Of a stretch of 64,000 nt of DNA, positions 10,098 to 45,429 are shown piece by piece; within the stretch, counting starts at the first letter, position 1, and each line of letters starts with the position of its first letter. The translations under genes were made by a program, and so were the position numbers. Source of the DNA: an uncultured virus (IMG/VR IMGVR_UViG_3300041405_000400). Lineage: Duplodnaviria; Heunggongvirae; Uroviricota; Caudoviricetes. The notes beneath the pieces are model-generated. The model did no database searches. It was not told the DNA's origin and saw nothing but the letters and a program-made list of their open reading frames with translations. The DNA lies in the IMG/VR virus record IMGVR_UViG_3300041405_000400; one strand, 5' to 3'.

Positions 10098-10252
10098 GGC
10101 TATCCCGACGAGTAATTTTATAAACGTCATATTATATGCCGCCGTACGTTTTTGTCAATGCAACTTACGCAAGTCTTTTCTGTAAATGGTATTGACATTT
10201 GTGTCGCGATTAGCTATTATTAGCCAATATTCTTCCAGCCCATGGATGCCTC

Positions 10253-28572: not shown

Positions 28573-29359
28573 TAAATTTAATGGCGACCCTCAACGCCCG
28601 TTCGGACATCGTGTGAAAAAATCGACCACATCGTTGGACATTGATGTTTACCCGGTGATTCACCATCTCAATGCGGCCACTACGCTTGAACAGGCCGATA
28701 TTGCCTTTGACGCCCAGGCAGACGGCGTGTTCCTGATTTCGCATTATCGTGATGATGATGCACTGGTGCCACTGGCTCATCAGATCAAGGCGAAGTACCC
28801 GGACAAGAAGGTTGGGCTAAACTTCCTTTCCAAAGGCCCTCAGGCGGCGCTGGACGCTGTTGATATCGCGGGGCTTGACATGATGTGGGGGGACTACTGT
28901 GGCGTCACCTCCGGTGAGCCAGAAATGCTGGCGCATGATCTTGACGTTCGCAATCAGGAGATTGGCGTAAAGGACATCTTTGCCTCGGTGGCTTTCAAGT
29001 ATCAGGCTGAAGACACTGATCCTCCATTGGCTGCACGCCACGCTAAAATCTTTGGCTTTATTCCAACGACCAGCGGCGCCGGAACCGGCGAAGCGCCAAC
29101 CGTGGATAAGATCAAGGCCATGAGCGCAGCCGCTGATGGAAATCTGGCGGTGGCCAGCGGCATGACGGTGGAAAACATAGGTGATTACGCCCCCTATCTT
29201 CGCTACGTCCTGGTGGCTACTGGGGTGTCGTTGGACGACCATCACTTCGATTTTGAGCGTCTGTATCGATTCATTGCGCTGGCCAAAAACGCCAAAGCCA
29301 ATCACTTGATTACCAGTGAGTTGGTCGCGGTTGCGGCAAAGACGGATGGCGGTAAGTAA
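28559..29359 (+). CDS. BtpA/SgcQ-family TIM-barrel protein
   Basis: PVIH...ADGVFLI, GLNFL, VAFKYQ, TSGAGTG, ASGMTVENI, LVATG. Confidence 0.8.
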   Translation: MTSTDKFNGDPQRPFGHRVKKSTTSLDIDVYPVIHHLNAATTLEQADIAFDAQADGVFLISHYRDDDALVPLAHQIKAKYPDKKVGLNFLSKGPQAALDAVDIAGLDMMWGDYCGVTSGEPEMLAHDLDVRNQEIGVKDIFASVAFKYQAEDTDPPLAARHAKIFGFIPTTSGAGTGEAPTVDKIKAMSAAADGNLAVASGMTVENIGDYAPYLRYVLVATGVSLDDHHFDFERLYRFIALAKNAKANHLITSELVAVAAKTDGGK

Positions 29360-30204
29360 TGACTGTCAAAGCGAAGTTTCTTATCGACAGGTATGTCGTA
29401 GAAAATAGCTATCACGATGACCTTTATGAGCAATTGAAGCTGCTCGGATTTGAGGTTGTTTGTGATGGCTACACCTATTTCACTCAGGAGCCTGCGACCA
29501 AGCATTTTGGTGATGATGACTGCGTGGTTCTGTACGGCAGCATGAGCTTTGTGGAGCAATTTGGTCGTGGGCGTGGATTCATCCCAGGCGCCTATTACAC
29601 CAAGAGTCGCTACCTCTGCTCCCAGTACATGCACAGGCTGCCTGAAGGCATCATGGCGAACGATGATTATCTGATGCTGCCTTTTGGTGAGTTCGTCCGC
29701 CGTCACAAGTCGATTTACCAGTTGTTCAACAGCAACAAGATTTTCATTCGACCCAACTCTGGACACAAAACCTTCACCGGCCTTCCGATCCATATTGAGG
29801 AATTTACTCATGAAATCAATACATTGAGAAAGCTTCTTAATGTATCGGATGACACATTGATTTTGATCGCGTCCTGCAAGGAAATCATGGCTGAGTACCG
29901 GTTTTTCGTCGTTGGCGGAAAGGTGATTACTGGCTCCAGGTACAAGCTTGGAAATGAGCTTTCCATTGAGCCCATCATTGATGAGGCGTGCCTTGAGGTG
30001 GCTAAACGCGTTGCCGAGCATGCTTGGCAGGTGGATCTGGCCTATGCATGCGATGTTGGTATTGTGGATGGAAAACCGAAGGTCATCGAACTTAATGCAT
30101 TTTCTACATCTGGGCTCTATGCTGTTGATATTCCTAGCTTGTTTACTGCTGTCGCCGAGATTGCGGTAGCTGAATGGAATGACGAAGTTTCACTTACCGA
30201 TTAA
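29359..30204 (+). CDS. ATP-grasp domain protein (R2K/DUF4343-like)
   Basis: FIRPNSGHKTFTG, EYRFFVVGGKVITGSRY, IELNAFSTSGLY. Confidence 0.85.
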   Translation: MTVKAKFLIDRYVVENSYHDDLYEQLKLLGFEVVCDGYTYFTQEPATKHFGDDDCVVLYGSMSFVEQFGRGRGFIPGAYYTKSRYLCSQYMHRLPEGIMANDDYLMLPFGEFVRRHKSIYQLFNSNKIFIRPNSGHKTFTGLPIHIEEFTHEINTLRKLLNVSDDTLILIASCKEIMAEYRFFVVGGKVITGSRYKLGNELSIEPIIDEACLEVAKRVAEHAWQVDLAYACDVGIVDGKPKVIELNAFSTSGLYAVDIPSLFTAVAEIAVAEWNDEVSLTD

Positions 30205-31432: not shown

Positions 31433-31677
31433 TGTTTTTTGGCTTTCTTGGCTTTCTTTTGAATGACGACATTGGCAACGTGTTCAATCGCTACGTTCTT
31501 CATCAGCGAGTAGCCGTTCTCACCGCCTTTTGTTCCTCCGCCGAACCACTGCGCCAGCAGCGCAACAGCTTCAGCGCCTTTGACCTCCTCTCCATTTTCA
31601 AACTTGTCCATGATGCTTTGTTTGACAGTTAGTTCGCCATATTCACCGTCTTCAAACAGTTTTTCAATCTTCATCAT
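31429..31677 (-). CDS. hypothetical protein
   Basis: GAGGTG RBS. Confidence 0.7.
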   Translation of the reverse strand: MMKIEKLFEDGEYGELTVKQSIMDKFENGEEVKGAEAVALLAQWFGGGTKGGENGYSLMKNVAIEHVANVVIQKKAKKAKKQ

Positions 31678-31704
31678 TCACCTCGTTGGTTAGGATTACT
31701 GGAA

Positions 31705-31739
31705 TAAAAAAACCGGCAGCCCGAAGGACTGCCGGTTTG
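31705..31739 (-). terminator. intrinsic terminator after tRNA-Thr
   Basis: AAACCGGCAGTC-CTTCG-GGCTGCCGGTTTTTT. Confidence 0.85.
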
Positions 31740-31743
31740 TATG

Positions 31744-31819
<76 letters not shown>

Positions 31820-31902
31820 GTTGATGTGTTCATTGTATATATAGAGGATTGACTAGGCAAGCATTATTTTCATGGTTTTTTGATTATTTTATTGGTGTTC
31901 AA

Positions 31903-32157
31903 TCAGCATACAAAAAACAGAATAGTGAAAATCAGGGCGCCGGTCATTTGGAAAATGGTTACTTTTCTAATTGTTCCAGGATTTTTCTGCCAATCATGGA
32001 TAAGGCCATTGAATATTGATACATGCTCTTGAAGGCTGTAGTTCTGTTTAATCACATGATACGTGACAAAAATGGCAAAAATTCTGAGAGGGATATGCAC
32101 AATGAAAATTGAACAAACAAATAAAATGGCAATATTCGACGCTAACTGAGATGTCAT
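31903..32157 (-). CDS. small membrane protein
   Basis: hydrophobic ORF with AAGGGG RBS. Confidence 0.6.
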   Translation of the reverse strand: MTSQLASNIAILFVCSIFIVHIPLRIFAIFVTYHVIKQNYSLQEHVSIFNGLIHDWQKNPGTIRKVTIFQMTGALIFTILFFVC

Positions 32158-32184
32158 TATCGCCCCTTCGAGCCTTGAAAGTGT

Positions 32185-32470
32185 TAATGCAGGGAGGTCG
32201 CAGCATCTGGTTAGCTCGTGACCCAAGGGCCAAGGGTTCCCCGATTGATCGTTGTTGCCTGATCACCGCCTCCACAGCCTTGTAGGCAAAGCTGCCGTCC
32301 ACACGTGGGGCCTTTACCTACGGCAAGTCCACGAACTGCTCTTACGCTGCATTGGGAAAGATCGAAGCACTTCAAGGGTGCCTGTCTCGCAGTTACAAGG
32401 GAAATAGCGACCCGTCCCAGGTAGTGCGTCTATCGATGTTTTCCAATGCATCCTCTTTCGAGGAAGTTGG
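32185..32470 (-). ncRNA. two stem-closed structured RNA cassettes
   Basis: AATGCAG/CTGCATT and TGCATTGG/CCAATGCA closing stems, CCTC-GAAA-GAGG hairpin, promoter at ~32494-32523. Confidence 0.55.
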
Positions 32471-32542
32471 TTTTAACTGCAAAACTTCTGTGTATTATAT
32501 GGAGTGTTAGACTATTTCTTCAATAACGAAAACATCAATCCA

Positions 32543-32746
32543 TTAAATCGAGCAGGTTTTACGCAGCAATTCTGCCGATGGTACACTTGCCCTCACCTTT
32601 TCCTCAATTTCAATATCGTACAGACGCATTCTCTCACGGCTTTCCGCAAAACGTTTGTCGATTGCCGCAGTTTCTTCCGGTGACAACTTACCTGCATTGT
32701 ATAGACGCAATTTTTCTGTAATTTCAAGCAATGCGGCGAGGGACAT
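32543..32746 (-). CDS. hypothetical protein
   Basis: AGGAAG RBS. Confidence 0.65.
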   Translation of the reverse strand: MSLAALLEITEKLRLYNAGKLSPEETAAIDKRFAESRERMRLYDIEIEEKVRASVPSAELLRKTCSI

Positions 32747-32909
32747 TATTCTTGCTTCCTGAATTTTCGTTTAAAAGTTTGATTATACTCACAAGAAATA
32801 GTGGAGAGGCATTAAACCGAGACGGGACTTTAACCCGTCGAAGTCTGTCGTCATCACAGTGCCCTTTTCGCTCGGCCACCGATCTAATGCCTTTCCAGTA
32901 CAGCCTGAA

Positions 32910-33332
32910 TTAAGAACTTTGTGTCTCTTCGATGGGTGTCCACTTTGTGGCGTCCAACTCATGGGCTTTCCACTGATCGATACTGCCATCACCAAAGATT
33001 GTCATAATAATGTAGTCACCACATTTACGGCCATCAGTAACCTGTAGCTCATCAGGGACATAATGGCTTTTGAGCTTGGCAATTCTCTGTTTATTTTCAT
33101 CAAGCAGCCAATAAAGTCCAGCATCGCAGACTTTGTAATACACACGAGCCTCAATTCCGGCTGGCCAGTTTAAAACATGACCAGAACGAAGATCGATAGT
33201 TGGCATCCAGCCATCGCCTTTCCGAAAGGGAATCTTGCCTCCGGTATCAGCAACACCGTTAATATAACCGTCTTCCCAATATCGGACGCCAGCATCTACT
33301 TCAATGAATCTAGCGCATTTGATTTTAAACAT
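32910..33332 (-). CDS. conserved phage-type hypothetical protein
   Basis: VDAGVRYWED...YKVCDAG motif. Confidence 0.75.
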   Translation of the reverse strand: MFKIKCARFIEVDAGVRYWEDGYINGVADTGGKIPFRKGDGWMPTIDLRSGHVLNWPAGIEARVYYKVCDAGLYWLLDENKQRIAKLKSHYVPDELQVTDGRKCGDYIIMTIFGDGSIDQWKAHELDATKWTPIEETQSS

Positions 33333-33529
33333 ATTCAGTCATAATCCGTGTGTAATCTTGTTGCGTTTGCCTAGTCTACACCATTTGCATTGGAGATTGG
33401 CTTTCTAAATGCTTATCTTCATTGCAAACTTCTCTGAGGTGATTGTGTGCTCTTACCTGCCGTCACGGCACTACCTTCCGTCCTCTTGACTTCTTCTGCG
33501 CCCTAAAGAGCGGAGAAGGCCATAAGGTG

Positions 33530-33814
33530 ATGTACATCAGTGATGTACACCCCGGCAACGAAGGCCTGCTGCCTGAAGCTGAGCAGATGGCGAAGCAATT
33601 CGGCACCTATGATCAATTGGCCAACAGCATTTCGATTGATCAAGCATTCGTTTGGGTCGGGACGATCCTTACAAAGGATGCAGATGCCTGCACAGAAAGC
33701 ACGCATGCCATTGATCAGTTTATCGAGAAGGAAATTAAAACCGGTAAGACGGTATCGCGTGTTGGGAAGCCTGTGATGAAGATTACCAACAAGCCGATTG
33801 CCTGCCCGGCATGA
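33530..33814 (+). CDS. hypothetical protein
   Basis: ORF; start uncertain. Confidence 0.5.
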   Translation: MYISDVHPGNEGLLPEAEQMAKQFGTYDQLANSISIDQAFVWVGTILTKDADACTESTHAIDQFIEKEIKTGKTVSRVGKPVMKITNKPIACPA

Positions 33815-33893
33815 GGCTGATTTGGCGGGGCGGCGTCCCGCCACATTGAGATCTGTGCCAGTCAACTGATTCTGTTTTCTATTCGATGCGACA

Positions 33894-33919
33894 CAAAAAG
33901 CCCGCTCGATGGCGGGCTA
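33894..33919 (-). terminator. terminator of the RNA-cassette operon
   Basis: AGCCCGC-CATCGA-GCGGGCTTTTT. Confidence 0.8.
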
Positions 33920-33940
33920 GATTGCGACAAGCGTTCAGCG

Positions 33941-34201
33941 TCACATATTGAACGCGTCCAGGGCCTCTTTACAGGTCATCTGATAGCCGAGCGAGGCCCC
34001 TTCTGAATCACCTCGCGTTGGTCCTTTGTCAGTCATGACCCAAGGTACTTTATTTTCACCCATCGTAAGCGCTAGACCGTTCTGGTCGCAGGCAATCCAT
34101 TGTGATTGAGGAGAAATCAGGTCGGCTGCGGCATACGCCAATCCACAAAGCCCAAGAGCAATGAGCGCTGCCAAGATGCGCAGCTGAATTCGTATGATCA
34201 T
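33941..34201 (-). CDS. small secreted protein
   Basis: signal peptide (…AYAA). Confidence 0.65.
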   Translation of the reverse strand: MIIRIQLRILAALIALGLCGLAYAAADLISPQSQWIACDQNGLALTMGENKVPWVMTDKGPTRGDSEGASLGYQMTCKEALDAFNM

Positions 34202-34239
34202 GTTTTCACTCGATAGATGTGTACCGGTTCTGCATTGGA

Positions 34240-34366
34240 AACCCATGTGAAGAGACTCGAACTCTCAGATCTCGGCAGTTTGTCCCGACCGTGGATCGCG
34301 CGCCTTCCCGGTTCTGAGTCCCGGTTTAGGTGCCGCCTGCGTCTACCAATTTCGCCACACATGGGT
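34240..34366 (-). ncRNA. Leu-type tRNA scaffold with an expanded central insert
   Basis: D-arm GGCGAAATTGGTAGACGC, T-arm GAGAG-TTCGAGT-CTCT, extended acceptor stem. Confidence 0.6.
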
Positions 34367-35716
34367 TTCCAATACAGCCTCCGAAGAGGATGTTTTGGGC
34401 AGGGCTGGAGGCAAATTCCAGCTTTTCAAAGTGCCTTGGCCACGGGTTACATCACGTATAGCTTAATGAAAAGCAGCCCCGTTATTATGCGACAGCCGTT
34501 GCCGATTGAACGACATTCCTGCTTTTGAATTATACAATACTTTCTTAAAAAATATTATATGCATCGGCAGAATGATTTGGTGATGGATTCGAACCATCGT
34601 CCCGGAATGCCGCGCCGTTGATCAAACGGCCCTGCCAAATCACTCTCCGATGCACTCTCGTGTGAGAATGCGGTGTAACGGGTGACACAAATGACCGGCA
34701 CTGAACTCCGGCTTTAAGGCGCCAAAGCCACCATGCCCTTTCGGGTTTGCTTCCAGGTGGCAATTAAGCACTCAGTTATCTGGGCTGCGCATCAGCCTAC
34801 GCATTCATTCGCATCGGGGTGTGATCTGGCCGGTGCTGGTCTCCGGCATTCGTGGTTATCTGGTGGCCTGCAACCTTCAGGCTCTACGAACTGGGCACAA
34901 CCCCAACGTCAGATGCGCATTACTTGGAATCATCGAACAGCTCCCGGATGTTTGTGGTTACGGGAGTGCCTGTCTGATGTGTTCCCCACGATCAAGCTTG
35001 CTTGCGTATCAGCCTACGCATTCAGATCACACCCCGATGCGCTCTCAGAGAGAGTAATCGGGCAGTTAGCGACAGGCTGTCGTGCAGTGATTCTGTGTCC
35101 GAAGGAGGTCGGACCGGCATGCAAGGCCATTACGCCATTCACCCACCTATCGGGCTCTGTCACCCCTTCATAACGCGTTCGGGGTTTTACGCGGCGATCC
35201 AGACTTACTTTTATATGGGGTTCCAGGGTCGCATCTCGCCCATTTCGTTTTGGCTTTCGCCTAATTCTTGCGGTGCATCTGAAGCTGTATTGGAATGTCG
35301 GTCCACACCATTTTCTGCAATCAACGTCCGGGTGTTCGCCACAATCCGATTGCTCTGGAGATGCTTTTTTCATGACCCGCCGACATTCCGATACAGCCTC
35401 TTTCGAGGTGATCGGGCCGTCTTTCCGGCTGTCACAGAACCAACGATTGAGCCGGTAGGTCTGAACGGCTATCCCTTTATGTGCTTGGGAGTCCAGCAGG
35501 CGGCTTGATCCCCGCTCAGGATTCTTTGTGACACTCTCGCGTGAGAGTGCTGTATTACGGTTGACGCAGATGGCCGGTACTGAACTCCGGCTTGGCGCTC
35601 TCCTGGGCGTGTTAGCGTATTTCACCTCGCAAGCGGTCTCTCACCGCCTCTTCCCTTTCGGGTTGCCCCAGCCAGTTGCGCATCAGCCTGCGCATTCATC
35701 AACGTCGGTGTTGCTA

Positions 35717-35803
35717 TGGAGCGGGTACATGGATTCGAACCATCAGCCGCTAAGCCGCCTTTATCCACTAGTAGGATTGCCCCCAATGGGCTCGGTTCCC
35801 CGC
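35717..35803 (-). ncRNA. aberrant tRNA-like RNA with CUA at the anticodon position
   Basis: GCGGG/CCCGC-T-CCA acceptor, ATGG-TTCGAAT-CCAT T-arm, ATCC-TACTAGT-GGAT arm. Confidence 0.6.
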
Positions 35804-35808
35804 AAATC

Positions 35809-35878
35809 TGGCGCCCCTACGTGGAGTTGAACCACGCGACCGACGCATGATCAGTGCGATCGTCAATCCCTCCAGGGC
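35809..35878 (-). ncRNA. D-arm-less tRNA-like RNA with a GAU loop
   Basis: GCCCT/GGGGC-G-CCA, CGTGG-TTCAACT-CCACG, CGCA-CTGATCA-TGCG. Confidence 0.6.
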
Positions 35879-36209
35879 AAATTCTAATGCAAATGGCCGG
35901 TACTGAACTCCGGCTCAGCCAATCTTTTCTATTAGGCAGTTTCAACGGCATGCCGCCTCATATACCTGTAAACCCTTTTGGCCCATCCAGTTTCTCAGTG
36001 CGCCTCAGTCGGCGCCAACATCTGCATTGGTAGGTTCACCGGCTAGGACGCATTCGGCTGGTACAAGCCTCGAAAATATTGCCCAAACGGGGGACATAAA
36101 ACCGGTCACGCCTCCCGTCCTCTGACCGGATTGGGCCGCTCTAAACGGCTTCCGGTGAACCTCCAATACAGCCTCTTTCGAGGCTAAGCCAACCAGCGGT
36201 TTCTCACGC

Positions 36210-36455
36210 TTAGTCGTGCCGATTGATCTTAAGTGTCCATTCGCGGTCGCCATCCACTGACAGCGTGACCTCATGGTCTTTCTTCAATGCCCTGACAATG
36301 ACGCTTTCTGTGGCCAGGATGGGCTCTTTATCTTCATCTTCGCCGATTTCCGCAGCCAAATACAGCTTTTCTGCTGCCACTTCCTTAACCAGCGCTTTGC
36401 GGGTCGTATAGACAGTGATCTCGTAGGCTTCGTTAACGGTTGTAAAAATCGTCAT
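36210..36455 (-). CDS. small acidic hypothetical protein
   Basis: ATG at 36455 with GGA RBS. Confidence 0.65.
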   Translation of the reverse strand: MTIFTTVNEAYEITVYTTRKALVKEVAAEKLYLAAEIGEDEDKEPILATESVIVRALKKDHEVTLSVDGDREWTLKINRHD

Positions 36456-36530
36456 CAGAGATTCCGTAATCTGTTTTGTGTGCAATAGCACAATGCATTG
36501 GGGTGAAATCTGACCGGATGTGATCCCGGC

Positions 36531-36600
36531 ATGTGTGGGTGGACTCGAACCACCGACGCGCCTTTTGCGAGGCCGCTCTACCAACTGAAGCTACACACTA
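36531..36600 (-). ncRNA. pseudo-tRNA nested in a cassette
   Basis: TAGCTTCAGTTGGTAGAGC D-arm, GGTGG-TTCGAGT-CCACC T-arm, shortened anticodon arm, no CCA. Confidence 0.6.
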
Positions 36601-36852
36601 CGCTATCTGTTCACCGGGCCTAGGAATCCCGTCACCGTCAAGCCTATTGAGTCACAAACTCACTTTCAGATTCCACCCCAATGCATCCCCAAAGGGGCAG
36701 TGGGCTTAAAATTGCATTAGTGGATGCTCCGATAACTACTTGCCATGCTTCGAATATTATCCGAATCAGGGAATTGAACCCCGGACACACCCCATTTGAT
36801 GCTTCCCTAACGCAGTTATGTTTACAAGTTCATATTCTGCTCTTGTCGGACT

Positions 36853-36881
36853 ATTTTAGCGAGGTCTCATACATGTGTCAA
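36853..36881 (-). promoter_or_regulatory. sigma70 promoter of the cassette operon
   Basis: TTGACA-17 nt-TAAAAT. Confidence 0.8.
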
Positions 36882-36926
36882 TGCTATTTTCAGATTTTTT
36901 TGAATCAAACGGCATCTGGTGTTGTA

Positions 36927-37244
36927 TTAGTGGATGGCAAACACATTACTTCGCTGGATAATCAGAATATCACCGGCTTCAAGGCCATGGTTTTCGGTAT
37001 TTTTAAGCACATTGGCGACTGAACCGAACATGTGAAGTGGATCTACCGCCAGGAGATCAACCCAGAACGCTTCACTACCTTTTTTGCCGTATTCACCCAC
37101 ACCCACTTTCACATAATCGCCAACCTCTAGCGAATGGAGTTCAGTTGCACTGGGAAGTGTTATTGTGAAGCCATGTTTGTCCGCGATTTCTTGTGCGTTA
37201 TGGAGATCTGCATGTTTTACTGAATTTGGGTCAAATGTGGTCAT
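36927..37244 (-). CDS. hypothetical protein (DUF2314-like)
   Basis: GDYVKV...EAFWV...GSVAN. Confidence 0.65.
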   Translation of the reverse strand: MTTFDPNSVKHADLHNAQEIADKHGFTITLPSATELHSLEVGDYVKVGVGEYGKKGSEAFWVDLLAVDPLHMFGSVANVLKNTENHGLEAGDILIIQRSNVFAIH

Positions 37245-37535
37245 GGTTCGCTCTAATAATGTGAGTGGTCGTTAGCGGCAAGTGGTTTGAATTTCATATA
37301 TTATCAAATTTGCGCTTCAGGCGCCTCTTTCTTGCGTCGGAAGATTTGCTTTTTTGCCTAAGTACGCACCGTATTTAATGTTGTCAACAGGGGGCTGAAG
37401 GGTGGACTTACCACTGGTCGGCAAACATGCACTAGATATTTCTGTTGCAGTGACAAGAAAATGTAAGAGCGAGACTGTTTGGCATCTGTTGCAATTATTT
37501 ATTATGACTTTCTTGAAAAGACAAAAACCATCCAC

Positions 37536-39100
37536 TGAGTCTCCCTGTGGTATATCTAGGGATTCTGAAGGTGAATCATCCGGGGTTTCAGGTGAGTGCC
37601 TGCTGTGACCGAATGCAATCCTTCTTTGACGTACCATCCGCTCTGCCGGTAGATACCGGGGCTGTGACTTACGCCACAACGCTTGCAGATTGATCTTTCC
37701 ATAGTCCGGTACGTCGCAGCACAGACTCCTGATCTGCCAGCATCTGAGCGATACTGGAGGGGCTATGGGTGTTTCCATCAGTGCAACACGCCAACAGTGC
37801 CGAATAAACGTCCCTTTGAATCAGCCCGTTGCCATCACCCAGCGCGTGCCAACGCAAGGACAGGGGTTTCTTCGTGTAGGAATCGGTGCAGTGATCGTAC
37901 TGCGACATTTTGAGCTTCCAGGTATTCAGTTCAATCATCTTGCCGCCAGCACTTTCAGCCTTGCGTTTCAGATGTTGAACAAAATAGCCCGGTGCCCTGT
38001 TTTTCACTGACTTTCCAAAAGACTTCTGAAAAGCCCGGTAGGACAATTTTTCGAGGTGCCAAATGTTGGCTTGACTGAGCAAGCGATTTACTAGTTGGCC
38101 GTGCTCATTCCGGCGTCGAGCCTGCAAAGTGCGTTCGATGTTTGCGATCCGCTGCCGCAGTGTGATCAATCGGCTTGATTGATTCGTGATACGTTGACCG
38201 CTGATCCAGAGGCCTTTCTTATCAAAGCACTGTGGATTGGTGGAACGCACGGAGCGGTCTGCCTTGCGCTGCAACCGCCGCAGAGTTTTGGCGCAAGGCA
38301 CAACGCCAGGACAAAAAGTTTGCAGTGTGGCACCTGACTCGGTGAAGCTGGCCACTGTCGAAGGTCCGATATCCAGTCCGCCGTGGGCGTTGACCGATAG
38401 ACTGGTGGGAGGGGCTTGACCTTCGAGGATCAGCTGGACGAAATAGCGAGTTTTACCCTTAATATTGCGCCATAGAACCCGCGAGAATTTCACTCGGTTT
38501 TTCAATGCATCATCGAGGAACGGGTCTTTACCCGGTGTAGGCAGAATCACAGGCATCAACAAGCCAGCCCATAGCAAGCAGGCGGTTTCGGACTGATAGC
38601 GAATGGCTGAAGCAGCACTTTTACCTTCTAGCGAATGCAGGGGTCGTTTTAGGCCTTTGAAGCGAGGTAGGCTGCGCTTCTTGTAGGAGTGCTGTTCAAG
38701 AGCAAAGAACACACGCTTCGCCAGTGTCTGCGGCTCATGAGCACCGAGGTGGTCGCGCCAAAGTCGGTTCTTAAGGCGTGTGCCAAAGGCAGAAAGGGCG
38801 TACTCAGAAAAACCGTAAGTTTCACGCAGCTGTTTATAGCCAGATCTTTTTGTCTGCACATCTTTTCTGTCGCGAAGGGTTGCCCATAGTGGATCACTAC
38901 GCATGGCAGAAAGTCTTCGGATACCCTCTGCAAGCAGGGCGTTGTAGAGCCTCTTGCCTGCCTCAAATCGCTTACGCATCACTGCCGAGTCGCGACCTTT
39001 TGTCACGAGCGGTAGCGTTATAATGAAACTGGAAGTTGAGGCTTTTTTCATCCGGTTTTACACTTTCAGCTCGACGAAGAAGAGTACAAACAAAGGCTGT
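37536..39100 (-). mobile_element. IS200/IS605-family tnpB-only (IS1341-like) element; boundaries approximate
   Basis: tnpB followed by a structured tail ending TCCCT...AGGGAGACTCA; no tnpA. Confidence 0.65.
37669..39051 (-). CDS. tnpB: RNA-guided endonuclease TnpB
   Basis: RuvC motifs GLDIGP, HLEKL and QRDVYSA; LYNALL N-terminal helix. Confidence 0.88.
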   Translation of the reverse strand: MKKASTSSFIITLPLVTKGRDSAVMRKRFEAGKRLYNALLAEGIRRLSAMRSDPLWATLRDRKDVQTKRSGYKQLRETYGFSEYALSAFGTRLKNRLWRDHLGAHEPQTLAKRVFFALEQHSYKKRSLPRFKGLKRPLHSLEGKSAASAIRYQSETACLLWAGLLMPVILPTPGKDPFLDDALKNRVKFSRVLWRNIKGKTRYFVQLILEGQAPPTSLSVNAHGGLDIGPSTVASFTESGATLQTFCPGVVPCAKTLRRLQRKADRSVRSTNPQCFDKKGLWISGQRITNQSSRLITLRQRIANIERTLQARRRNEHGQLVNRLLSQANIWHLEKLSYRAFQKSFGKSVKNRAPGYFVQHLKRKAESAGGKMIELNTWKLKMSQYDHCTDSYTKKPLSLRWHALGDGNGLIQRDVYSALLACCTDGNTHSPSSIAQMLADQESVLRRTGLWKDQSASVVA

Positions 39101-39220
39101 TACTATCTAAATTTGGCTTGATCTTAAATATAGGAAAGGAGTTGTAATAGTCAATAGTGTTTTATGTCAATTATTTTTTATGAATGAATCAGGATGCTTG
39201 TGAGGCACCTCTGTTTGCCC

Positions 39221-39297
39221 TGGAGCCGGTGACAGGAATCGAACCTGCATAACGATGATTTGCAATCATCAGCCTAGCCTTTCAGCAACACACCGGC
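39221..39297 (-). tRNA. tRNA-Cys(GCA), with 2 extra nt before the D-stem
   Basis: GATGA-TTGCAAA-TCATC, U73, CCA. Confidence 0.88.
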
Positions 39298-39539
39298 ATG
39301 CTCTTTTCAACTGATTAGGCAATCATTTAAGCCGTGCTTTTATGATTCCCACTTCAGTCTATATTCTTGAACTTATGGTTAATATTCAGAAGGGTGAGCG
39401 TCAAATCTCACCCTCCTCGCCCGTTCTCAGGCGAACAACTGGATATGTTCAGTTGCCAATCCCTTATTACAGCACAGGGTCTGCCTCCCAATATTATGGC
39501 AAACGGGAGCACCTATTCACGGAAACCATCCGCAAAAAC

Positions 39540-39616
39540 TGGCTGGCGATGCTGGGCTCGAACCAGCGACCTAATGATTAACAGTCATTTGCTACTACCA
39601 ACTGAGCTAATCGCCA
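39540..39616 (-). tRNA. tRNA-Asn(GUU)
   Basis: AATGA-CTGTTAA-TCATT, G73, CCA. Confidence 0.95.
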
Positions 39617-40131
39617 ACATAAACTCTAAAGATGTATTCGTGTAACACCGAAATTGTGGGTCTCCAATCGGCCAAGAAAAACAGTGTTACGCGAATACAG
39701 CCTTTCACCTCTGCATTCGGTCTTCTCTCAGACTGTCACGGCACTGCCTTCCGTCCTAGGGCTCCACCCACACTTCTCGCGCTTAGCCACTTCGCTTTTT
39801 AGGCTACTGAGCTGTCGGATAAAGTGCCCTCGGAGTTGACTGCAAACATAGAGTCATGTCTCTATTGGCTAACTGCAACCCATTTCTACAAGAGAACTAG
39901 GCCAGCGGAATTGAACCGCTCAGGGCTCATAGCAGGCTTTTTTCGGCTTCATGTGCGCACAATCGGCTTACTACCCCTGCTACTTTACCATTTGCATTTG
40001 AAAGTGTTCTTGTCAGAAGTCTTTCAAATGCAAACACGCATAAAATAGAACTCTATCTGCAATATAATCCAAATACGAGCCTGGATTATAATGTGTCAGA
40101 GCTTGCACCCTGACCGGAGTCAAAATGTCGG

Positions 40132-40521
40132 TCAGTCTTCTCGGACAAACCTGAAGCCTTTAACCGCTGCGAAATCTGGCACATGGTCGCCATTATAAAT
40201 CAGCTTCCACTTCTTGTTAGCCAGCTCTTCCAAATGAAACATGCGCTTATCAGTTTTAACCGCTACGGGCTTGATCATTTCGAATTCGCCCAGACCTCTT
40301 ATTGAAAATTTGCCGTTTGACAAGTCAATCGACTCAACATCAACAATGTCTTTTACATCCGATTCGTCGTTCGAGAAAAAGCATGTGTTAAAGGTCAATC
40401 GCCATGTCCCATCTGGAAGTTCATCCAAGTGAAACAAGTTTTTACGGATTTTAACTGCTGTTACACCACTCAATTCGAGTGTAATGTCAGTTCCAGCCAG
40501 CTCAATTGCCCTTCGAAACAT
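40132..40521 (-). CDS. hypothetical protein with an internal repeat
   Basis: FHLDEL...WRLTFN / FHLEEL...WKLIYN. Confidence 0.75.
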   Translation of the reverse strand: MFRRAIELAGTDITLELSGVTAVKIRKNLFHLDELPDGTWRLTFNTCFFSNDESDVKDIVDVESIDLSNGKFSIRGLGEFEMIKPVAVKTDKRMFHLEELANKKWKLIYNGDHVPDFAAVKGFRFVRED

Positions 40522-40569
40522 GCTTATCCCTTTAAAACTAGAGTGGTCATATAGACCACTCTTTTTATT

Positions 40570-40657
40570 TGGCGGAGGCGAAGAGATTCGAACTCTTGGA
40601 CCTGTTACAGTCGGCAGTTTTCAAGACTGCTGCCTTAAACCACTCGGCCACACCTCC
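40570..40657 (-). tRNA. tRNA-Ser(UGA)
   Basis: GCAGT-CTTGAAA-ACTGC, long variable arm, G73, CCA. Confidence 0.97.
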
Positions 40658-40846
40658 AAACTTTTTAGAGCTATTGACTCATCATCAAGAGTTTCTGTTT
40701 CCAGTCACTCTGGATCATAAGTCAACTACGCCTATTATTAAACCGGGCGAAGCGGTTACCTCTTGCTACCACTGGTAGCCGAGCAACAAGAGTTTGGAAT
40801 TTGCTAGCTGTTTTAGTTTCTAGCTGGTTCCGAATCCTATGTCGCT

Positions 40847-40875
40847 ATAATAATCATCTAAGCATCATGTGTCAA
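40847..40875 (-). promoter_or_regulatory. sigma70 promoter of the Ser/Asn/Cys tRNA operon
   Basis: TTGACA-17-TATTAT. Confidence 0.75.
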
Positions 40876-40892
40876 TAAGAATCTCAACTATT

Positions 40893-41774
40893 TTAATCCT
40901 TTAGAAACATTCCGCAGCTCGCTTTTACATCAAAGCCGACTTTTGGCACGATTCTCCAACTTTCTGCCTTGATCAGCGAGCGCAGGATCTCGGTATTGCG
41001 CTGAATGACCTCTTCGCACGGCTCCTTTCCATATTTTGCTGAATACGGGTTATAGCGAACGATGTTCAGGTTCACCTTCAGGTCGCGCTCGTTGATCGCA
41101 TTGGCAATGGCGACCATATCAGCTTCAGAGTCATTCTCGCCTTCGATGAATGCGAAATGAATCTTTGGCACTTTATGACTGAAATCTTGCCATGCCTTGA
41201 GCATATCGAGGCCATGTTCAGCCGTGTGCGCTCGGGCCAGCCAACGCTTACGGAACGATGGGTTCATGCTGTAGATCGAGTAATAGATCTCTGGATGCAC
41301 CTCTGGAAAAATGTCTTCCAGTCGCAAGTCACCCATCGAGGTTGGAAAAATAGACGACACCAGGAATTTGGATTCCAGGCCATAGGTTTGCGACTTCGCT
41401 GCCAGTCCATTGAGCAATTGCGCGCTGTCACTCAGCAGCAAAGGGTTGTTCAGTGGCTCCCCCCTGGCCATGAAGTTCCAGTGGATGAGCTTGGCCGGAG
41501 CTTGGGTGTCGTAATGCTCCAAGATGCGTTCGGCCTGCTGCATGAAGTCGTCCATTTCAGCATTGTCGAATTGATTCTGGCCGGTCGATGTCAGGTGGCA
41601 AAATCGGCACGCTTGATCGCAGCCAGATTGCGAGGACAGGTAGCCAATGATGTACTCAGGCACCCGACGAACGTAACGGTTTTCATAGCGACCGACATTC
41701 GGCGCAGGGTACTCAAAGTTGACCGACTGATCCTGCTGACTGAAGTGGGCTTTGAAAATGATGTTCTGGCTCAT
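40893..41774 (-). CDS. RlmN/Cfr-like radical SAM protein
   Basis: SSQSGCDQACRFC, MARGEP, GENDS, DVKASCG. Confidence 0.88.
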   Translation of the reverse strand: MSQNIIFKAHFSQQDQSVNFEYPAPNVGRYENRYVRRVPEYIIGYLSSQSGCDQACRFCHLTSTGQNQFDNAEMDDFMQQAERILEHYDTQAPAKLIHWNFMARGEPLNNPLLLSDSAQLLNGLAAKSQTYGLESKFLVSSIFPTSMGDLRLEDIFPEVHPEIYYSIYSMNPSFRKRWLARAHTAEHGLDMLKAWQDFSHKVPKIHFAFIEGENDSEADMVAIANAINERDLKVNLNIVRYNPYSAKYGKEPCEEVIQRNTEILRSLIKAESWRIVPKVGFDVKASCGMFLKD

Positions 41775-41863
41775 GCGTGCCTCGGTATATTTTGTTTGTG
41801 TGATTATAGCTTGGCTTTGAAGATTTTCAATTTTTCATTGAGTCGAGTGCCAGCGGATGAGAT

Positions 41864-42139
41864 TTAATTCAGGGCTTCTGCTGCACTCTCAATTGCATCA
41901 TTTCTCATGCGTTCAATCGAGGTAATTAGTTTTGCCTTCGTCTCTGTAAAAGGCAAATCATGATCTAGGAAATATTGAACGGCCAAACAATGTGCGAAGA
42001 TCGGTATTTGAGCATCAGTAATATCTTTTAGCCCATTTTCATCCACGGCTAATTCTTCCGGGTTCCAGAAAAAAGGCTCCCTGCCCTGCATTGCTGGCAT
42101 AAGCGGTTCCAATTTTGGAGTGAATGGAATTTTCTGCAT
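41864..42139 (-). CDS. hypothetical protein
   Basis: ORF in a minus-strand run. Confidence 0.6.
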   Translation of the reverse strand: MQKIPFTPKLEPLMPAMQGREPFFWNPEELAVDENGLKDITDAQIPIFAHCLAVQYFLDHDLPFTETKAKLITSIERMRNDAIESAAEALN

Positions 42140-42183
42140 ATTATGGGTGCTCGTTGAGTGGGTTGATTGAGATTCTTCGTCGA

Positions 42184-43149
42184 TCAGATTGAGGGCGATG
42201 AACGTTTTTGATTCAGTGATTGAGTTTGTTCGTAGCGCTTCGCAGCCTGTGGATTTACACCTAGGCTGGTCATGTCCAGGGCGTTGTGGTCAACGGCACG
42301 GTCGTGATCGATCAATTTACGCAACGCTTGAGGCACATCCACTTCTGCGGTTGGGCGATATTTCTGCTCAATGTTCTGCATGGCGGTGGCCAGGGTATCG
42401 ATCTGCGCCTGTAGATCCTTGCAGGACTTTTCAATTTCGTTGTACGGAGTAACGAATCTGTTTCGCTGATCAATGCACATACGCTCGGCATCGTCGAGTT
42501 TCTGCATATTGAAAATAGACATAAAATCGATGATCGGCTCAATGGTAAAATCCAGAACGGTGTCAATCACTGACAAGCCCAGCACATTCTTATCGCTGGT
42601 GCGCTGTTCTTTGAGGGCGTCTTGAAAGGCATTGGCGTGAGCGAACGCTCTGGAAACGTCATCTTGAGCGCTGCTGGTATCTAGGGCTGAAATAACGGAG
42701 AAGACCTTGTTGTTGGAGATCGCGTCTGTAAATTCGCTCCAATAGGCACTGTTACAAGATGCGGCAGCTTTGTCCAGATGGGCCACGGCGGTATCGCCCA
42801 GGCCTTTCAGCTCATAAAGCGGTGCAACAGCAGCCTCAAGGTTCTGGCGTTTTGCAAGCAAATCACCCCATGTCTTGCTGTCGGCTGGTTGAGCTTCGAT
42901 AAGCTCCACGACGCGCTGATCAAGCCAAAGCTGAGTCGATTCACGGGATGACTGCTCAATCGTGCTAAATCGCTCCTGAGCGGCCTTCAGTCCTTTCTCC
43001 GCAGGAGTGTCCATCACCGCATCAACGATTTGCCCCCAGAGGCCAGTCCGAGACTGTTTATCTGATACAACGCCCTGCTCTGCTTGAGCAAGGTCTGAAG
43101 CAGCCGCACTAAAAGTCTTGCTGATGGCGTGAATTGATGGGCTGCTCAT
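42184..43149 (-). CDS. helical/coiled-coil hypothetical protein
   Basis: AAGGA RBS, 321 aa. Confidence 0.8.
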   Translation of the reverse strand: MSSPSIHAISKTFSAAASDLAQAEQGVVSDKQSRTGLWGQIVDAVMDTPAEKGLKAAQERFSTIEQSSRESTQLWLDQRVVELIEAQPADSKTWGDLLAKRQNLEAAVAPLYELKGLGDTAVAHLDKAAASCNSAYWSEFTDAISNNKVFSVISALDTSSAQDDVSRAFAHANAFQDALKEQRTSDKNVLGLSVIDTVLDFTIEPIIDFMSIFNMQKLDDAERMCIDQRNRFVTPYNEIEKSCKDLQAQIDTLATAMQNIEQKYRPTAEVDVPQALRKLIDHDRAVDHNALDMTSLGVNPQAAKRYEQTQSLNQKRSSPSI

Positions 43150-43182
43150 TAATAATCCTTTAAATAAAAAAATTATATCACA

Positions 43183-43207
43183 GAAAAAAGGCCGCTTTCG
43201 CGACCTT
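43183..43207 (-). terminator. intrinsic terminator
   Basis: AGGTCGC-GAAA-GCGGCCTTTTTT. Confidence 0.8.
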
Positions 43208-43619
43208 GGGTATTACGAGCAACCGGGGATTTTCTTAGATCACTCTAAGAACCGCAATCAAGGCAGGCTCTATGCGGTTTTCTTCCGCATACTATTGAGT
43301 GTGCCATGACGCTGCCCCGCTTACCGCCACAACTGAACTTTCGCATGGGCTTGGTACTTGTTCAATCGTCACTTATCACTAACATTTCCGACAAATAACA
43401 AGTGATCACAGTTATCTGACCGTGGCCCACACCAGATTATGGTTACCTCTTTAATTTTCCTGGGATGCTGGCCCAGGCCGTCTTATCTAAACAATGCAGG
43501 GAAAAAACGGAACCCAGCCATTGTACACCGTCTTTTATGCTTCACGCTCAGATCGTATTGACGGTAGTCAGTCAACGATCCATCCCATAGCGTGAAGGTT
43601 TGCGGAATACACCGCAAAT

Positions 43620-43850
43620 TCAGATCATGACCCAGCGATACCCATCTGCAATCATGGCGTCAATTGTTGCCAGATGTTCTTCGTATTGAGCACCACCTTT
43701 GCCCTCAAAGGAATTCTCAAGAAGCCAATCACGGTAAAACTGTGTGGGGTTTCCAGAGTTGAGTGCGGCTTTCGTTACAGTGGTAGGTGTCTGAAAAACA
43801 ACATCAAAATTAACAATCTTGCCCTTTTGCAAAGCGAGATTCATGCTCAT
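43620..43850 (-). CDS. small hypothetical protein
   Basis: GAGG RBS before ATG 43850. Confidence 0.7.
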   Translation of the reverse strand: MSMNLALQKGKIVNFDVVFQTPTTVTKAALNSGNPTQFYRDWLLENSFEGKGGAQYEEHLATIDAMIADGYRWVMI

Positions 43851-44292
43851 GTTGCTACTACCTCTATAGCGTAAAATTTCGAGCGTGGCGCAGTAGACGC
43901 CTTGCTGGTCGAGTATTAGCTCAGCCAGCGCTGGATTGCAATCCCCAGAGTTCTTAACCACCATCGGCTTTATCTTTACCTTCTAAAAGCCGAAAAAACG
44001 CCAGCTTTACTTAGAAGCTGATGAAAGCGTCGATGTTCCTCATCTCAAAGGCCCCGATTTTCACAGTTCGGGGTTCTGATTTGCTGTCTACTCAGCAAAA
44101 TTCCGGATGCAGTGTTGCTGCAAACATTGACCAAAGCAGAGCCTCCCTAAAGTATCGCTATACATAAAACCGAAACTTAATGTACTTACGATGACTTTTC
44201 GGGAGGACTGCAAACTTGCCTTGCGGCGAACTCTTACTGGGTGCGAAAGTAGTACTTTCTGACCACAATAACTGGTCTTACACCTTTTAAAA

Positions 44293-44369
44293 TGGTCCGA
44301 GAGGAGGGACTTGAACCCCCGACCACCCGTTTATGAGACAGACGCTCTAACCAACTGAGCTACCCTCGG
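44293..44369 (-). tRNA. tRNA-Met/Ile2(CAU)
   Basis: TCTGT-CTCATAA-ACGGG, A73, CCA; Met versus Ile2 identity unresolved. Confidence 0.92.
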
Positions 44370-44376
44370 ACAACAC

Positions 44377-44450
44377 TGGAGCGGATAGCGGGAATCGAAC
44401 CCGCGTCATTAGCTTGGAAGGCTAAGGTTCTACCATTTAACTATATCCGC
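44377..44450 (-). tRNA. tRNA-Gly(UCC)
   Basis: TTAGC-CTTCCAA-GCTAA, U73, CCA. Confidence 0.97.
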
Positions 44451-44500
44451 TTAAACCCTGCGAAACTTAGCGTCTGCTTCATCTCGACTTGATGCTGGCT

Positions 44501-44529
44501 ATGATATCGAAGTAACTATCACCTGTCAA
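44501..44529 (-). promoter_or_regulatory. sigma70 promoter of the Gly/Met tRNA operon
   Basis: TTGACA-17-TATCAT. Confidence 0.75.
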
Positions 44530-44658
44530 CATTTATTTTCTATTAAATTCAACAACTTGCGTGAATCTTGAAAATAATGGCCAGACCGTCATCATGCAAC
44601 ATCCATGAGAGGGGATCTGGCTCTGTTGTACTTATCGTAACTATAATTTCGAGTTAAG

Positions 44659-45429
44659 TCAACGCTTTGCAGCTATTTCTTTGACGGTGTAGCCAAATCC
44701 CTCGACCCACTCTCGATAGATTGCTGTTTCGTACTGCCGGGTGGCCGTAAGAAAATTGCGGTTCTGTGACCCCAGGTTTTCCAGAAGCGCTGCCAAGGCA
44801 ACGGCAGGCGCATCCATCTTTTGGCAAGGGATCGTGTCCATGACCGCATGGCTACTGAGGCTGACCATCGCCGCCTGATCAGCTTCGATGCTGCCAAGGA
44901 ATTCGATGGTTGAGCTTTTCCCAAATGTCCGCTCGGCTTGCTCATTTGTTCGAATGCACCTGACGACATCCACCATTAGGTATGGATTGGACTCCAGTAT
45001 GTCCAGTGCATCAGTCCAGATGGTGAACATGTACACGGATGTGCCGCCCTGAGGCTCATGTGGCGCAGGATGCTTGCTCTTGGTGATGCTGAGGCCTTCG
45101 TCATGGAAATGCTTGCGCATCGGACTGATATACCCTTCGAATCCCCTGCCCTGTGGCGGATTTTTGCCAAACATTGGTGAGAAAAACATCAGCATCTGGT
45201 TGTTCACGTACAGGGTCGTTTTCCCGCTGGTATGGTAGTGCTGCGAGAAGACAATGTTTTTCTCAGCCATATCGACGCGGCGTTCAGATGACCAGGGTTC
45301 GTTGGCATCAAACAGCTTTGGCAGGGTGTCGCTACGGTTCATGTAGTTGTACATGGTGTGCGAGAAATCGAGCTTATCGATCTCATCAAGGCCCTCATTC
45401 CTCACAGCCATTAGCACCAAGTTGCCCAT
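44659..45429 (-). CDS. hypothetical protein
   Basis: GAGG RBS, own promoter. Confidence 0.8.
   Translation of the reverse strand: MGNLVLMAVRNEGLDEIDKLDFSHTMYNYMNRSDTLPKLFDANEPWSSERRVDMAEKNIVFSQHYHTSGKTTLYVNNQMLMFFSPMFGKNPPQGRGFEGYISPMRKHFHDEGLSITKSKHPAPHEPQGGTSVYMFTIWTDALDILESNPYLMVDVVRCIRTNEQAERTFGKSSTIEFLGSIEADQAAMVSLSSHAVMDTIPCQKMDAPAVALAALLENLGSQNRNFLTATRQYETAIYREWVEGFGYTVKEIAAKR

Follow-up and report, generated by a model that had tools for sequence, protein, structure and literature searches.

Conserved either/or pairing at the boundary of predicted RNA cassettes in a T4-like phage and in Pseudomonas phages

In bacterial ribosomal RNA (rRNA) operons the flanks of a structured RNA pair with each other over a long distance. 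One published account describes a leader-trailer helix that forms only after the whole cargo has been transcribed, the leader holding local helices in the meantime (PMC10250234). A related layout is predicted in a stretch of 64,000 nucleotides (nt) from an uncultured virus (IMG/VR IMGVR_UViG_3300041405_000400; this whole stretch is referred to as the window), where seven cassettes, each consisting of a variable cargo enclosed by a long stem, are preceded by a small hairpin. The subject of this work is the first-transcribed strand of that stem, the 5′ arm, which in most of the cassettes can also pair with a short sequence on the far side of the small hairpin. The cassettes differ from the rRNA operons in several ways: they lie in a phage, their cargos of 43-190 nt are hypervariable, a conserved word makes up the outermost 7 base pairs (bp) of the stem, and the end of the long helix is overlapped by the leader hairpin; cleavage by RNase III is putative.

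With regard to the sequence of folding events, the closest known case is the signal recognition particle (SRP, 4.5S) RNA of E. coli. An early 5′ hairpin of this RNA is reported to be replaced by a long helix once the 3′ strand appears (bioRxiv 10.1101/379222). The SRP RNA intermediate is non-native and is not known to be selected, whereas the local partner in the cassettes is conserved beside 31 different inner hairpins and, unlike in SRP RNA, only the last 4-7 bp are exchanged. T4-like genomes also carry PeSL elements, conserved stem-loops that bound variable modules and that are proposed to mediate shuffling (PMC4122927). PeSLs are composites of a terminator and a promoter flanking protein genes, without the long-range stem, the GYAUYGG word or the RNA cargo of the cassettes. 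The cassettes, in turn, do not show the PeSL order of a stem-loop followed by an early sigma-70-type promoter, since only two promoter-like sites lie near the seven of them. The small stable RNAs of the T4 tRNA region resemble the cassettes in being noncoding RNAs clustered with tRNA genes, some of them tRNA-like; unlike these RNAs, the cassettes have no sequence or Rfam match. The bacterial Y RNA-like YrlA shares with the cassettes a long stem made from the 5′ and 3′ ends and a tRNA-like module. Unlike in YrlA, the cassette stem continues an acceptor stem, and only 3 of the 85 cargos in relatives have a T-arm-like hairpin. The one weak Rfam match to YrlA (24.2 bits against a gathering score of 69) falls on two canonical tRNAs at 44344-44408 and not on a cassette.

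The comparisons described below indicate that the arm has a conserved either/or pairing. Its purpose as a timer or insulator, as put forward in a preliminary description of this DNA, is unproven, and a role in capping RNA ends after excision is at least as likely. The explanation that we favor, with a probability of roughly 40%, is that a conserved leader hairpin overlaps the leader-trailer stem and that selection has kept this overlap because it marks where an excisable module ends and seals it there.

Alternative partners of the cassette arm

The motif GYATYGG occurs 53 times in the window, compared with 34.5 +/- 5.4 expected, a number reached by none of 100 shuffles. Fifteen copies lie within 32349-36684, a region where open reading frames (ORFs) are sparse and short (32.3-36.7 kb), and 14 of these 15 form seven convergent pairs. 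The pairs are the ends of long inverted repeats with arms of 19-21 nt and a complementarity of 90-100%. The closing stem was present in the minimum free energy (MFE) structure of all seven complete cassettes, with cargos of 70-194 nt, and the region therefore counts seven cassettes rather than five. They are read from the minus strand. We base this assignment on the tRNA genes and flanking genes, which lie on that strand, on the GAAA and UUCG loops, which are correct when read from it, on a terminator in the related locus L016, and on the two promoter-like sites.

On the minus strand, the layout is an upstream CCRA(U), a small hairpin with a GAAA, UUCG, UUU or UCU loop, 1-3 nt, and an arm starting G-Y-A-U-Y-G-G. 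The preliminary description had quoted, on the plus strand, five sites where the arm finds a partner across the small hairpin, and all five are exact in the sequence. In cassette 5, CCGAT (35388-35392) faces ATCGG (35411-35415); the leader hairpin at 35397..35415 on the minus strand combines CCUC-GAAA-GAGG, CA/UG, and CCGAU (35411-35415) paired to AUCGG through five Watson-Crick pairs. In cassette 2, CCAAtACA (34369-34376) faces TGTtTTGG (34391-34398), and the leader hairpin (34378..34398, minus) is built from CCUC-UUCG-GAGG, ACA/UGU and CCAA/UUGG, with 13 positions and 2 mismatches. The CCGAT of cassette 4 (35034-35038) faces ATCGG at 35057-35061; its leader hairpin (35042..35062, minus) has the inner stem-loop CUCUC-UCU-GAGAG, and CCCGAU (35057-35062) forms six Watson-Crick pairs with AUCGGG of the arm. 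For cassette 7, CCCA (36677-36680) faces TGGG (36701-36704), the leader hairpin (36687..36704, minus) being CCCC-UUU-GGGG with CCCA at 36701-36704 paired to UGGG. Finally, CCAA (32443-32446) of cassette 1 faces TTGG (32467-32470), and in its leader hairpin (32451..32470, minus) the inner UCCUC-GAAA-GAGGA occupies 32451-32464 while CCAA (32467-32470) makes four Watson-Crick pairs with UUGG of the arm. The claim that the first arm of each long stem has such a partner held for these five cassettes and failed for the two at 34561-34653 (cassette 3) and 36024-36169 (cassette 6). The small hairpin of cassette 3 (34655-34668, minus) is extended by GCA/UGC and lacks the CCRAU partner, having three Watson-Crick pairs only, and that of cassette 6 (GCCUC-GAAA-GAGGC, 36171-36184, minus) has no upstream partner either, with two such pairs.

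When the 12 nt upstream of the small hairpin were compared with the first nine bases of the arm, the five cassettes had 4-6 contiguous Watson-Crick pairs. The chance of at least four such pairs is 6-10% per cassette, which gives a probability of 6.8e-5 for at least five of seven on the assumption of independent cassettes; being paralogues, they are not independent. Once G-U pairs were allowed, a 4-bp match was no longer significant (chance 0.3-0.54 per cassette), and four contiguous pairs appeared in 51% of shuffles, which makes that version of the test uninformative. Transcripts truncated after the arm folded into the extended hairpin in five of the seven cassettes. The upstream base also tracks base 5 of the arm in six of the seven, A going with U in three cases and G with C in three. 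The upstream CCRA(U) pairs with bases 3-7 of the word, and the distal CCRAURC complements the same bases; thus, the arm has two mutually exclusive partners, as had been proposed. Pairing of the inner-hairpin loop with arm bases 6-10 (CUCC with GGAG) was considered as a further contact and rejected, as it was not above the level of shuffled loops.

A search for the stem family with the flanks left unconstrained returned 118 distinct cassettes. In 108 of them, CCGA is found within 36 nt on the outer side of one arm only; 3 have it beside both arms and 7 beside neither. Kissing-hairpin motifs were used as an independent marker of orientation, by which the CCGA side was the 5′ side in 28 of 30 cassettes, with no discordant case. 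The hairpins between CCGA and the arm are of 31 kinds, and their loops measure from 3 to about 18 nt, so that the partner is always at the foot of the hairpin, whatever the hairpin is. The partner can be as short as 4 nt (CCGA) or as long as 7 nt (CCGAUGC) and never loses its register with the arm. Of the GAAA-hairpin type, 54 distinct 5′ elements were compared; 43 have at least four Watson-Crick pairs and 46 have CCGA, and in 53 aligned elements 87% of the cells of the outer helix are paired, compared with 31-40% when the partners are slid. Relatives of cassette 7 (contig matches with loose ends at 36690) have CCCC-GAGA-GGGG with CCCAA, CCCUA or UCCAA as the partner, and the helix is kept. 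The complementarity is therefore conserved in homologues, where the preliminary description had named its absence as an argument against a switch. Attempts to enlarge the sample of U-type (AUUGG) arms gave nothing useful: three distant relatives of the ORF at 32910-33332 had no cassette, two viral scans produced three chance matches and no matches, and one metagenome scan returned 92 stretches with no true cassette among those examined.

The pairing of the arm with its distal partner is often imperfect at the very positions of the competition. The commonest cassette has a C·A mismatch at arm base 5, and phage phi2 has C·C at base 5 plus A·C at base 8; in both, the upstream partner still matches. 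Of 51 distinct arm pairs, 10 have an A·C mismatch at position 5 and 25 have one at position 8. These recurrent mismatches weaken the pairing between the arm and the distal arm while the upstream partner continues to match.

Folding energies and the purpose of the overlap

The local partner is made first and, by nearest-neighbor energies, is the weaker one, as the preliminary description had anticipated. The full stem was favored by 3.2-22.9 kcal/mol in all 22 complete cassettes analyzed, although about 6 of these 22 rows used an upstream partner other than the helix proposed earlier and are not tests of it. The states are near balance only in phi2 (2.5 kcal/mol), L151 (3.2 kcal/mol) and L161 (-6.9 kcal/mol). 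When MFE structures of the growing chain were calculated, the start of the arm was paired upstream in 69/73, 116/116, 202/202 and 80/80 lengths of four cassettes, and in 88/162, 45/118 (with a different partner) and 0/65 (cassette 3) lengths of the other three. In cassette 7 the arm paired into the cargo in 55/162 lengths despite the presence of its partner. The flip to the long stem occurred only once the distal arm was complete, in agreement with displacement by that arm. The order of events described earlier is thus the order predicted by the energy model, and on these calculations strand displacement probably happens physically. The arrangement consists of two exclusive helices on one shared strand with a free toehold, the inner 10-14 bases of the arm; of the further features that would characterize a switch, states close in energy were confined to the three cases just named, and no linked trigger or output was found.

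The preliminary description had interpreted this order as co-transcriptional parking, in which the arm is kept in the local hairpin as an insulator of the cargo or a timer of processing and is then displaced. The event order follows from the energies, the upstream partner is conserved, the mismatches at arm positions 5 and 8 narrow the gap between the states (phi2, L151, L161), and there is a precedent in E. coli SRP RNA, which is reported to rearrange by toehold-mediated displacement (bioRxiv 10.1101/379222). However, the statement that the arm is parked is not supported: of its 17-21 bases the local hairpin engages only 4-7, which leaves 10-14 nt on the inner side free. Insulation of the cargo would therefore be poor, these exposed nucleotides being the bases able to mispair with it, and a 5-bp helix beside a toehold of 10-14 nt would give little delay of the invasion. 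The short hold, the two of seven cassettes without a partner, the covariation, which was not above shuffles, and a mirror overlap on the 3′ side that this model leaves unexplained all speak against the role of insulator or timer, and we consider it unlikely.

The mirror overlap involves the last bases of the distal arm, GAUGC and a further 1-3 nt, for which a GCAUC located 34-142 nt downstream is a possible partner. A 3′ partner of at least 6 nt is present in 21 of 22 temperate-phage loci, where this pairing would close the next hairpin or module. As the 3′ side is built alike, a timer acting at the 5′ side leaves the symmetry unexplained. The presence of both flanking partners in 21 of 22 temperate-phage loci could also suggest a static fold, in which the terminal 7 bp never form, the arm and the distal arm pair with their upstream and downstream partners instead, and the shortened stem is part of a three-way junction of stacked helices in multi-module RNAs. 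The recurrent mismatches within the terminal 7 bp fit this idea, as does L161, which favors such a fold by 6.9 kcal/mol. With the 3′ alternative allowed, though, the full stem was favored by 7.2-22.4 kcal/mol in 21 of the 22 loci, the 7 bp at the stem end show both complementarity and conservation of their own, and most cassettes of the window have no downstream partner. A static fold is improbable.

A selected module boundary, the explanation we favor, would work as follows. Each cassette would be a structured noncoding RNA within a leader-trailer stem of 17-21 bp, whose outermost 7 bp are the conserved word (5′ GYAUYGG opposite CCRAURC 3′, a purine coming next). The leader hairpin would immediately precede the stem on its 5′ side, made of a variable, stable inner stem-loop and a base in which the upstream CCRA(U) pairs with word bases 3-7. 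In the energy calculations this hairpin is the stable fold as long as the distal arm is missing; thereafter the full stem is favored, and the free inner 10-14 nt can serve as the toehold. In length (about 20 bp) and near-perfect complementarity the closing stems resemble the RNase III stems made by sequences on either side of stable RNAs, and a putative cut of this type would let the 5′ fragment snap into the extended hairpin and cap the 3′ end of the upstream RNA. On the other side, the downstream RNA would be capped when GAUGC of the distal arm pairs with the GCAUC that follows. In calculations with a cut at mid-stem, the 5′ fragment refolded to the extended hairpin in 9 of 11 cases. The conserved boundary words would also permit the exchange of cargos between phages. 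A broader version, which we offer tentatively and think rather less probable than not by a wide measure, sees the leader hairpin, the 7-bp word and the closing stem as a universal RNA "adaptor" of Pseudomonas phages that lets its cargo be excised from early transcripts in a self-sealing manner and, through the shared boundary words, makes cargos exchangeable between phages. Often followed by a second hairpin sharing the word, it would display dozens of unrelated structured cargos, some of them tRNA-like. Once cleavage has occurred, the alternative pairings on either side would separate the halves and cap both new ends.

Several observations weigh against a selected boundary pairing. Two of the seven window cassettes, the seven relatives mentioned above out of 118, and 8 of the 54 GAAA-type elements have no partner. 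The probability of the outer helix is about 0 at equilibrium in complete cassettes, and the modeled halves of a cut stem still stay together at standard state, by 3.5-17.5 kcal/mol. A·C mismatches (47) outnumber G·U pairs (34) in the sense-strand stems, so that wobble asymmetry leaves the strand unconfirmed. Covariation was not above shuffles either: two pairs changed on both sides, and 229 of 500 shuffles gave at least as many. What is conserved may therefore be a sequence word and not a pair, in which case the upstream CCGAU and the distal CCGAUGC would be two copies of one word recognized by a host or phage factor or used as a short homology in cargo-swapping recombination, and the pairing of the upstream copy with the arm a by-product. 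The word is nearly invariant, cargos are exchanged exactly inside kept stems among relatives that are 90-97% identical, the cargos enclosed by one stem fall into 38 clusters, assembly contigs break at the arms (run X2), and the PeSL motifs of T4-type phages have been proposed to mediate such shuffling (PMC4122927). A word alone would not require that the upstream base follow the arm base, as it does in six of the seven window cassettes, or that the partner be always at the hairpin foot (31 kinds) and, at 4-7 nt, always in register. We consider it unlikely that the word by itself is what is maintained.

A site acting at the DNA level was also considered, i.e., single-stranded hairpins with extrahelical bases for the capture of cassettes, similar to integron attC sites or the ends of IS200/IS605 elements. 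The leader hairpin of cassette 5 (CCGAU-CA-CCUC[GAAA]GAGG-c-UG-u-AUCGG) has 11 bp and two one-base bulges on one strand, the cassettes are mobile between unrelated phages, and a transposase-like ORF (phrog_506) lies at 37669-39051. Nevertheless, no linked integrase or HUH enzyme and no constant neighboring gene were found; a scan of 25 ORFs yielded no integrase. The consensus of integron attC sites is GTTRRRY, which is absent from the word GYATYGG. The tRNA-like cargos, stable tetraloops and gene orientation fit one transcribed strand, and the compensatory changes in cargo helices are typical of RNA. Taken together, these data make a DNA-level function very improbable.

The seven cassettes and their surroundings

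The window belongs to a T4-like phage, in which rIIA (7785-10130) and rIIB (6476-7753) were identified; no near relative was found among 50,697 phage records. Its six canonical tRNA genes, as detected by ARAGORN, are all on the minus strand. The cassettes, also listed for that strand, differ in cargo and stem. Cassette 1 (32349..32449), defined by its GYATYGG pair and the MFE structure, has a closing stem around a cargo of about 70 nt, the 5′ arm with GCAUUGG ending at 32449 and the distal arm starting at 32349. The 20-bp stem of cassette 2 (34230..34377), formed by 34230-34249 and 34358-34377, is coaxial with, and continues, the acceptor stem of a tRNA-shaped cargo. When introns were permitted, ARAGORN called 34241-34365 a tRNA with an insert of 47 nt in the anticodon arm and an implausible anticodon; with default settings, neither ARAGORN nor Rfam called the cassette cargos canonical tRNAs. 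Cassette 3 (34561..34653) has a stem of about 21 bp and a tRNA-like cargo with a GAU loop and a T arm and without a D arm. A perfect 19-bp stem (34810-34828 and 35023-35041, 100%) encloses the 194-nt cargo of cassette 4 (34810..35041), which holds two hairpins with complementary loops. Cassette 5 (35281..35400) has 21-nt arms (35281-35301 and 35380-35400) in which arm base 5 makes a C·A mismatch with its distal counterpart. Cassette 6 occupies 36024..36169, and cassette 7 (36493..36686) has 21-nt arms and a tRNA-like cargo.

Upstream of cassette 7, a degenerate boundary word at 36713-36719 (GCATTAG on the plus strand) provides a second upstream complement of 7 nt (CUAAUGC) to the arm of this cassette; it may be a relic of a further cassette. 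Additional tRNA-like pieces (T arms and one 3′ end ...GGGGCGCCA) are found on the minus strand at 35717-35880 and 36740-36830, uncalled by ARAGORN or Rfam, and the stretch 35717-35762 is 96% identical to one beside a tRNA-like region of the N4-like phage 98PfluR60PP.

Promoter-like sites between 32000 and 37200 numbered 6, compared with 5.8 expected, a total not above shuffles, and only two are on the minus strand near cassettes. One, TTGACA-17-TAAAAT (11/12; 36881-36853, minus), is just upstream of the neighborhood of cassette 7, and the other, TTGAAG-18-TATAAT (10/12; 32523-32494, minus), is just upstream of cassette 1. The ORF at 37669-39051 (minus) codes for 460 amino acids, matches the phage "transposase" family phrog_506 (E 8e-31), has no Pfam match, and is located just upstream, in the direction of transcription, of the cassette region. 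The gene at 40893-41774, amid the tRNA genes, codes for a radical-SAM/Fe-S protein (phrog_27142, E 4e-110), and the one at 29359-30204 for an ATP-grasp R2K-type protein.

A cassette family in Pseudomonas phages

At the gathering score, Rfam 15 identified only the six tRNAs in the window; there was nothing on the cassettes when 31500-45000 was searched at E<=5, and ten related loci gave no matches at E<=1. The family is undescribed in Rfam and in the literature text searched. A report on RNA arrays (bioRxiv 10.64898/2026.09.22.753630) covers other arrays (TwoAYGGAY, UG27). Judging by sequence, the cassettes form an RNA family that is spread among Pseudomonas phages and prophages and has no annotation. 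Other Pseudomonas phages carry parts of the region in gaps left without annotation, and the genes on either side lie on the same strand; e.g., an intergenic stretch of Pseudomonas phage Aurca01 shares 93% identity with cassette 5 over 137 nt, and the cassette of phage phi2 lies between Ydd and ParB-like genes. Pattern scans of viral contigs detected 14 loci and then 116 stretches comprising 61 distinct members, and one stem sequence was present in at least 120 viral contigs or loci. The pattern was also found at 12 genome loci, 10 of them from named Pseudomonas, so that prophage-like loci are present in the genomes of 10 Pseudomonas species. Parts of the typical locus are carried by 17 named Pseudomonas phages, none of which has it annotated as RNA, and cassettes are common to lambdoid and N4-like Pseudomonas phages. 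A comparison of Ydd, the ParB-like gene and the ORF upstream in L149 disclosed no constant neighbor.

The same stem encloses 85 distinct cargos that belong to 38 sequence clusters. The commonest cargo has compensatory changes in its helices; the possibility that it is a small ORF (AUGAAAAAAGC...) was rejected, since its variation is compensatory in helices and not three-periodic. Contigs 90-97% identical to the window came from three RNA libraries and one other run, and they may include DNA. Those from the RNA libraries cover 34.4-36.7 kb and cannot tell transcription, strand or ends. These contigs keep the stems and swap the cargo: 93 nt at 36036-36130 are replaced by 6 (cassette 6), 167 nt at 34520-34688 by 19, and 164 nt at 34838-35003 by 58.

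Two hairpins, GCGYAGGCUGAURCGC and GCCGGAGNUCAGNNCCGGC, are recurrent and have complementary loops (GCUGAU with AUCAGC in the temperate-phage copies). In the window, copies at 34790-34810, 35000-35022 and 35680-35700 go with copies at 34697-34715, 35582-35600 and 35897-35915, and the hairpins also occur in L016, L149 and L267. Variable inserts are flanked by them, an arrangement suggestive of a kissing-loop scaffold that is nested within the cassettes or comes after them. In several temperate-phage loci (L005, L012, L015, L016 and L018), a strong Shine-Dalgarno sequence comes after the RNA region, and the start codon that it precedes has a stop 0-2 codons on; such mini-ORFs (for instance, ATG TAA or ATG AAG TAG) precede the next gene.

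Irrespective of any switch, these sequences point to an unannotated, modular family of RNA cassettes in Pseudomonas phages, and their hypervariable cargos indicate a function in an arms race. If the overlap is functional, nature would offer in it a widespread example of branch migration linking a leader hairpin to a processing stem. If the adaptor exists as outlined, the locus would correspond, at the RNA level, to a hot spot of accessory genes and might hold anti-defense decoys, and the adaptor would be useful as a scaffold for the expression of structured RNAs.

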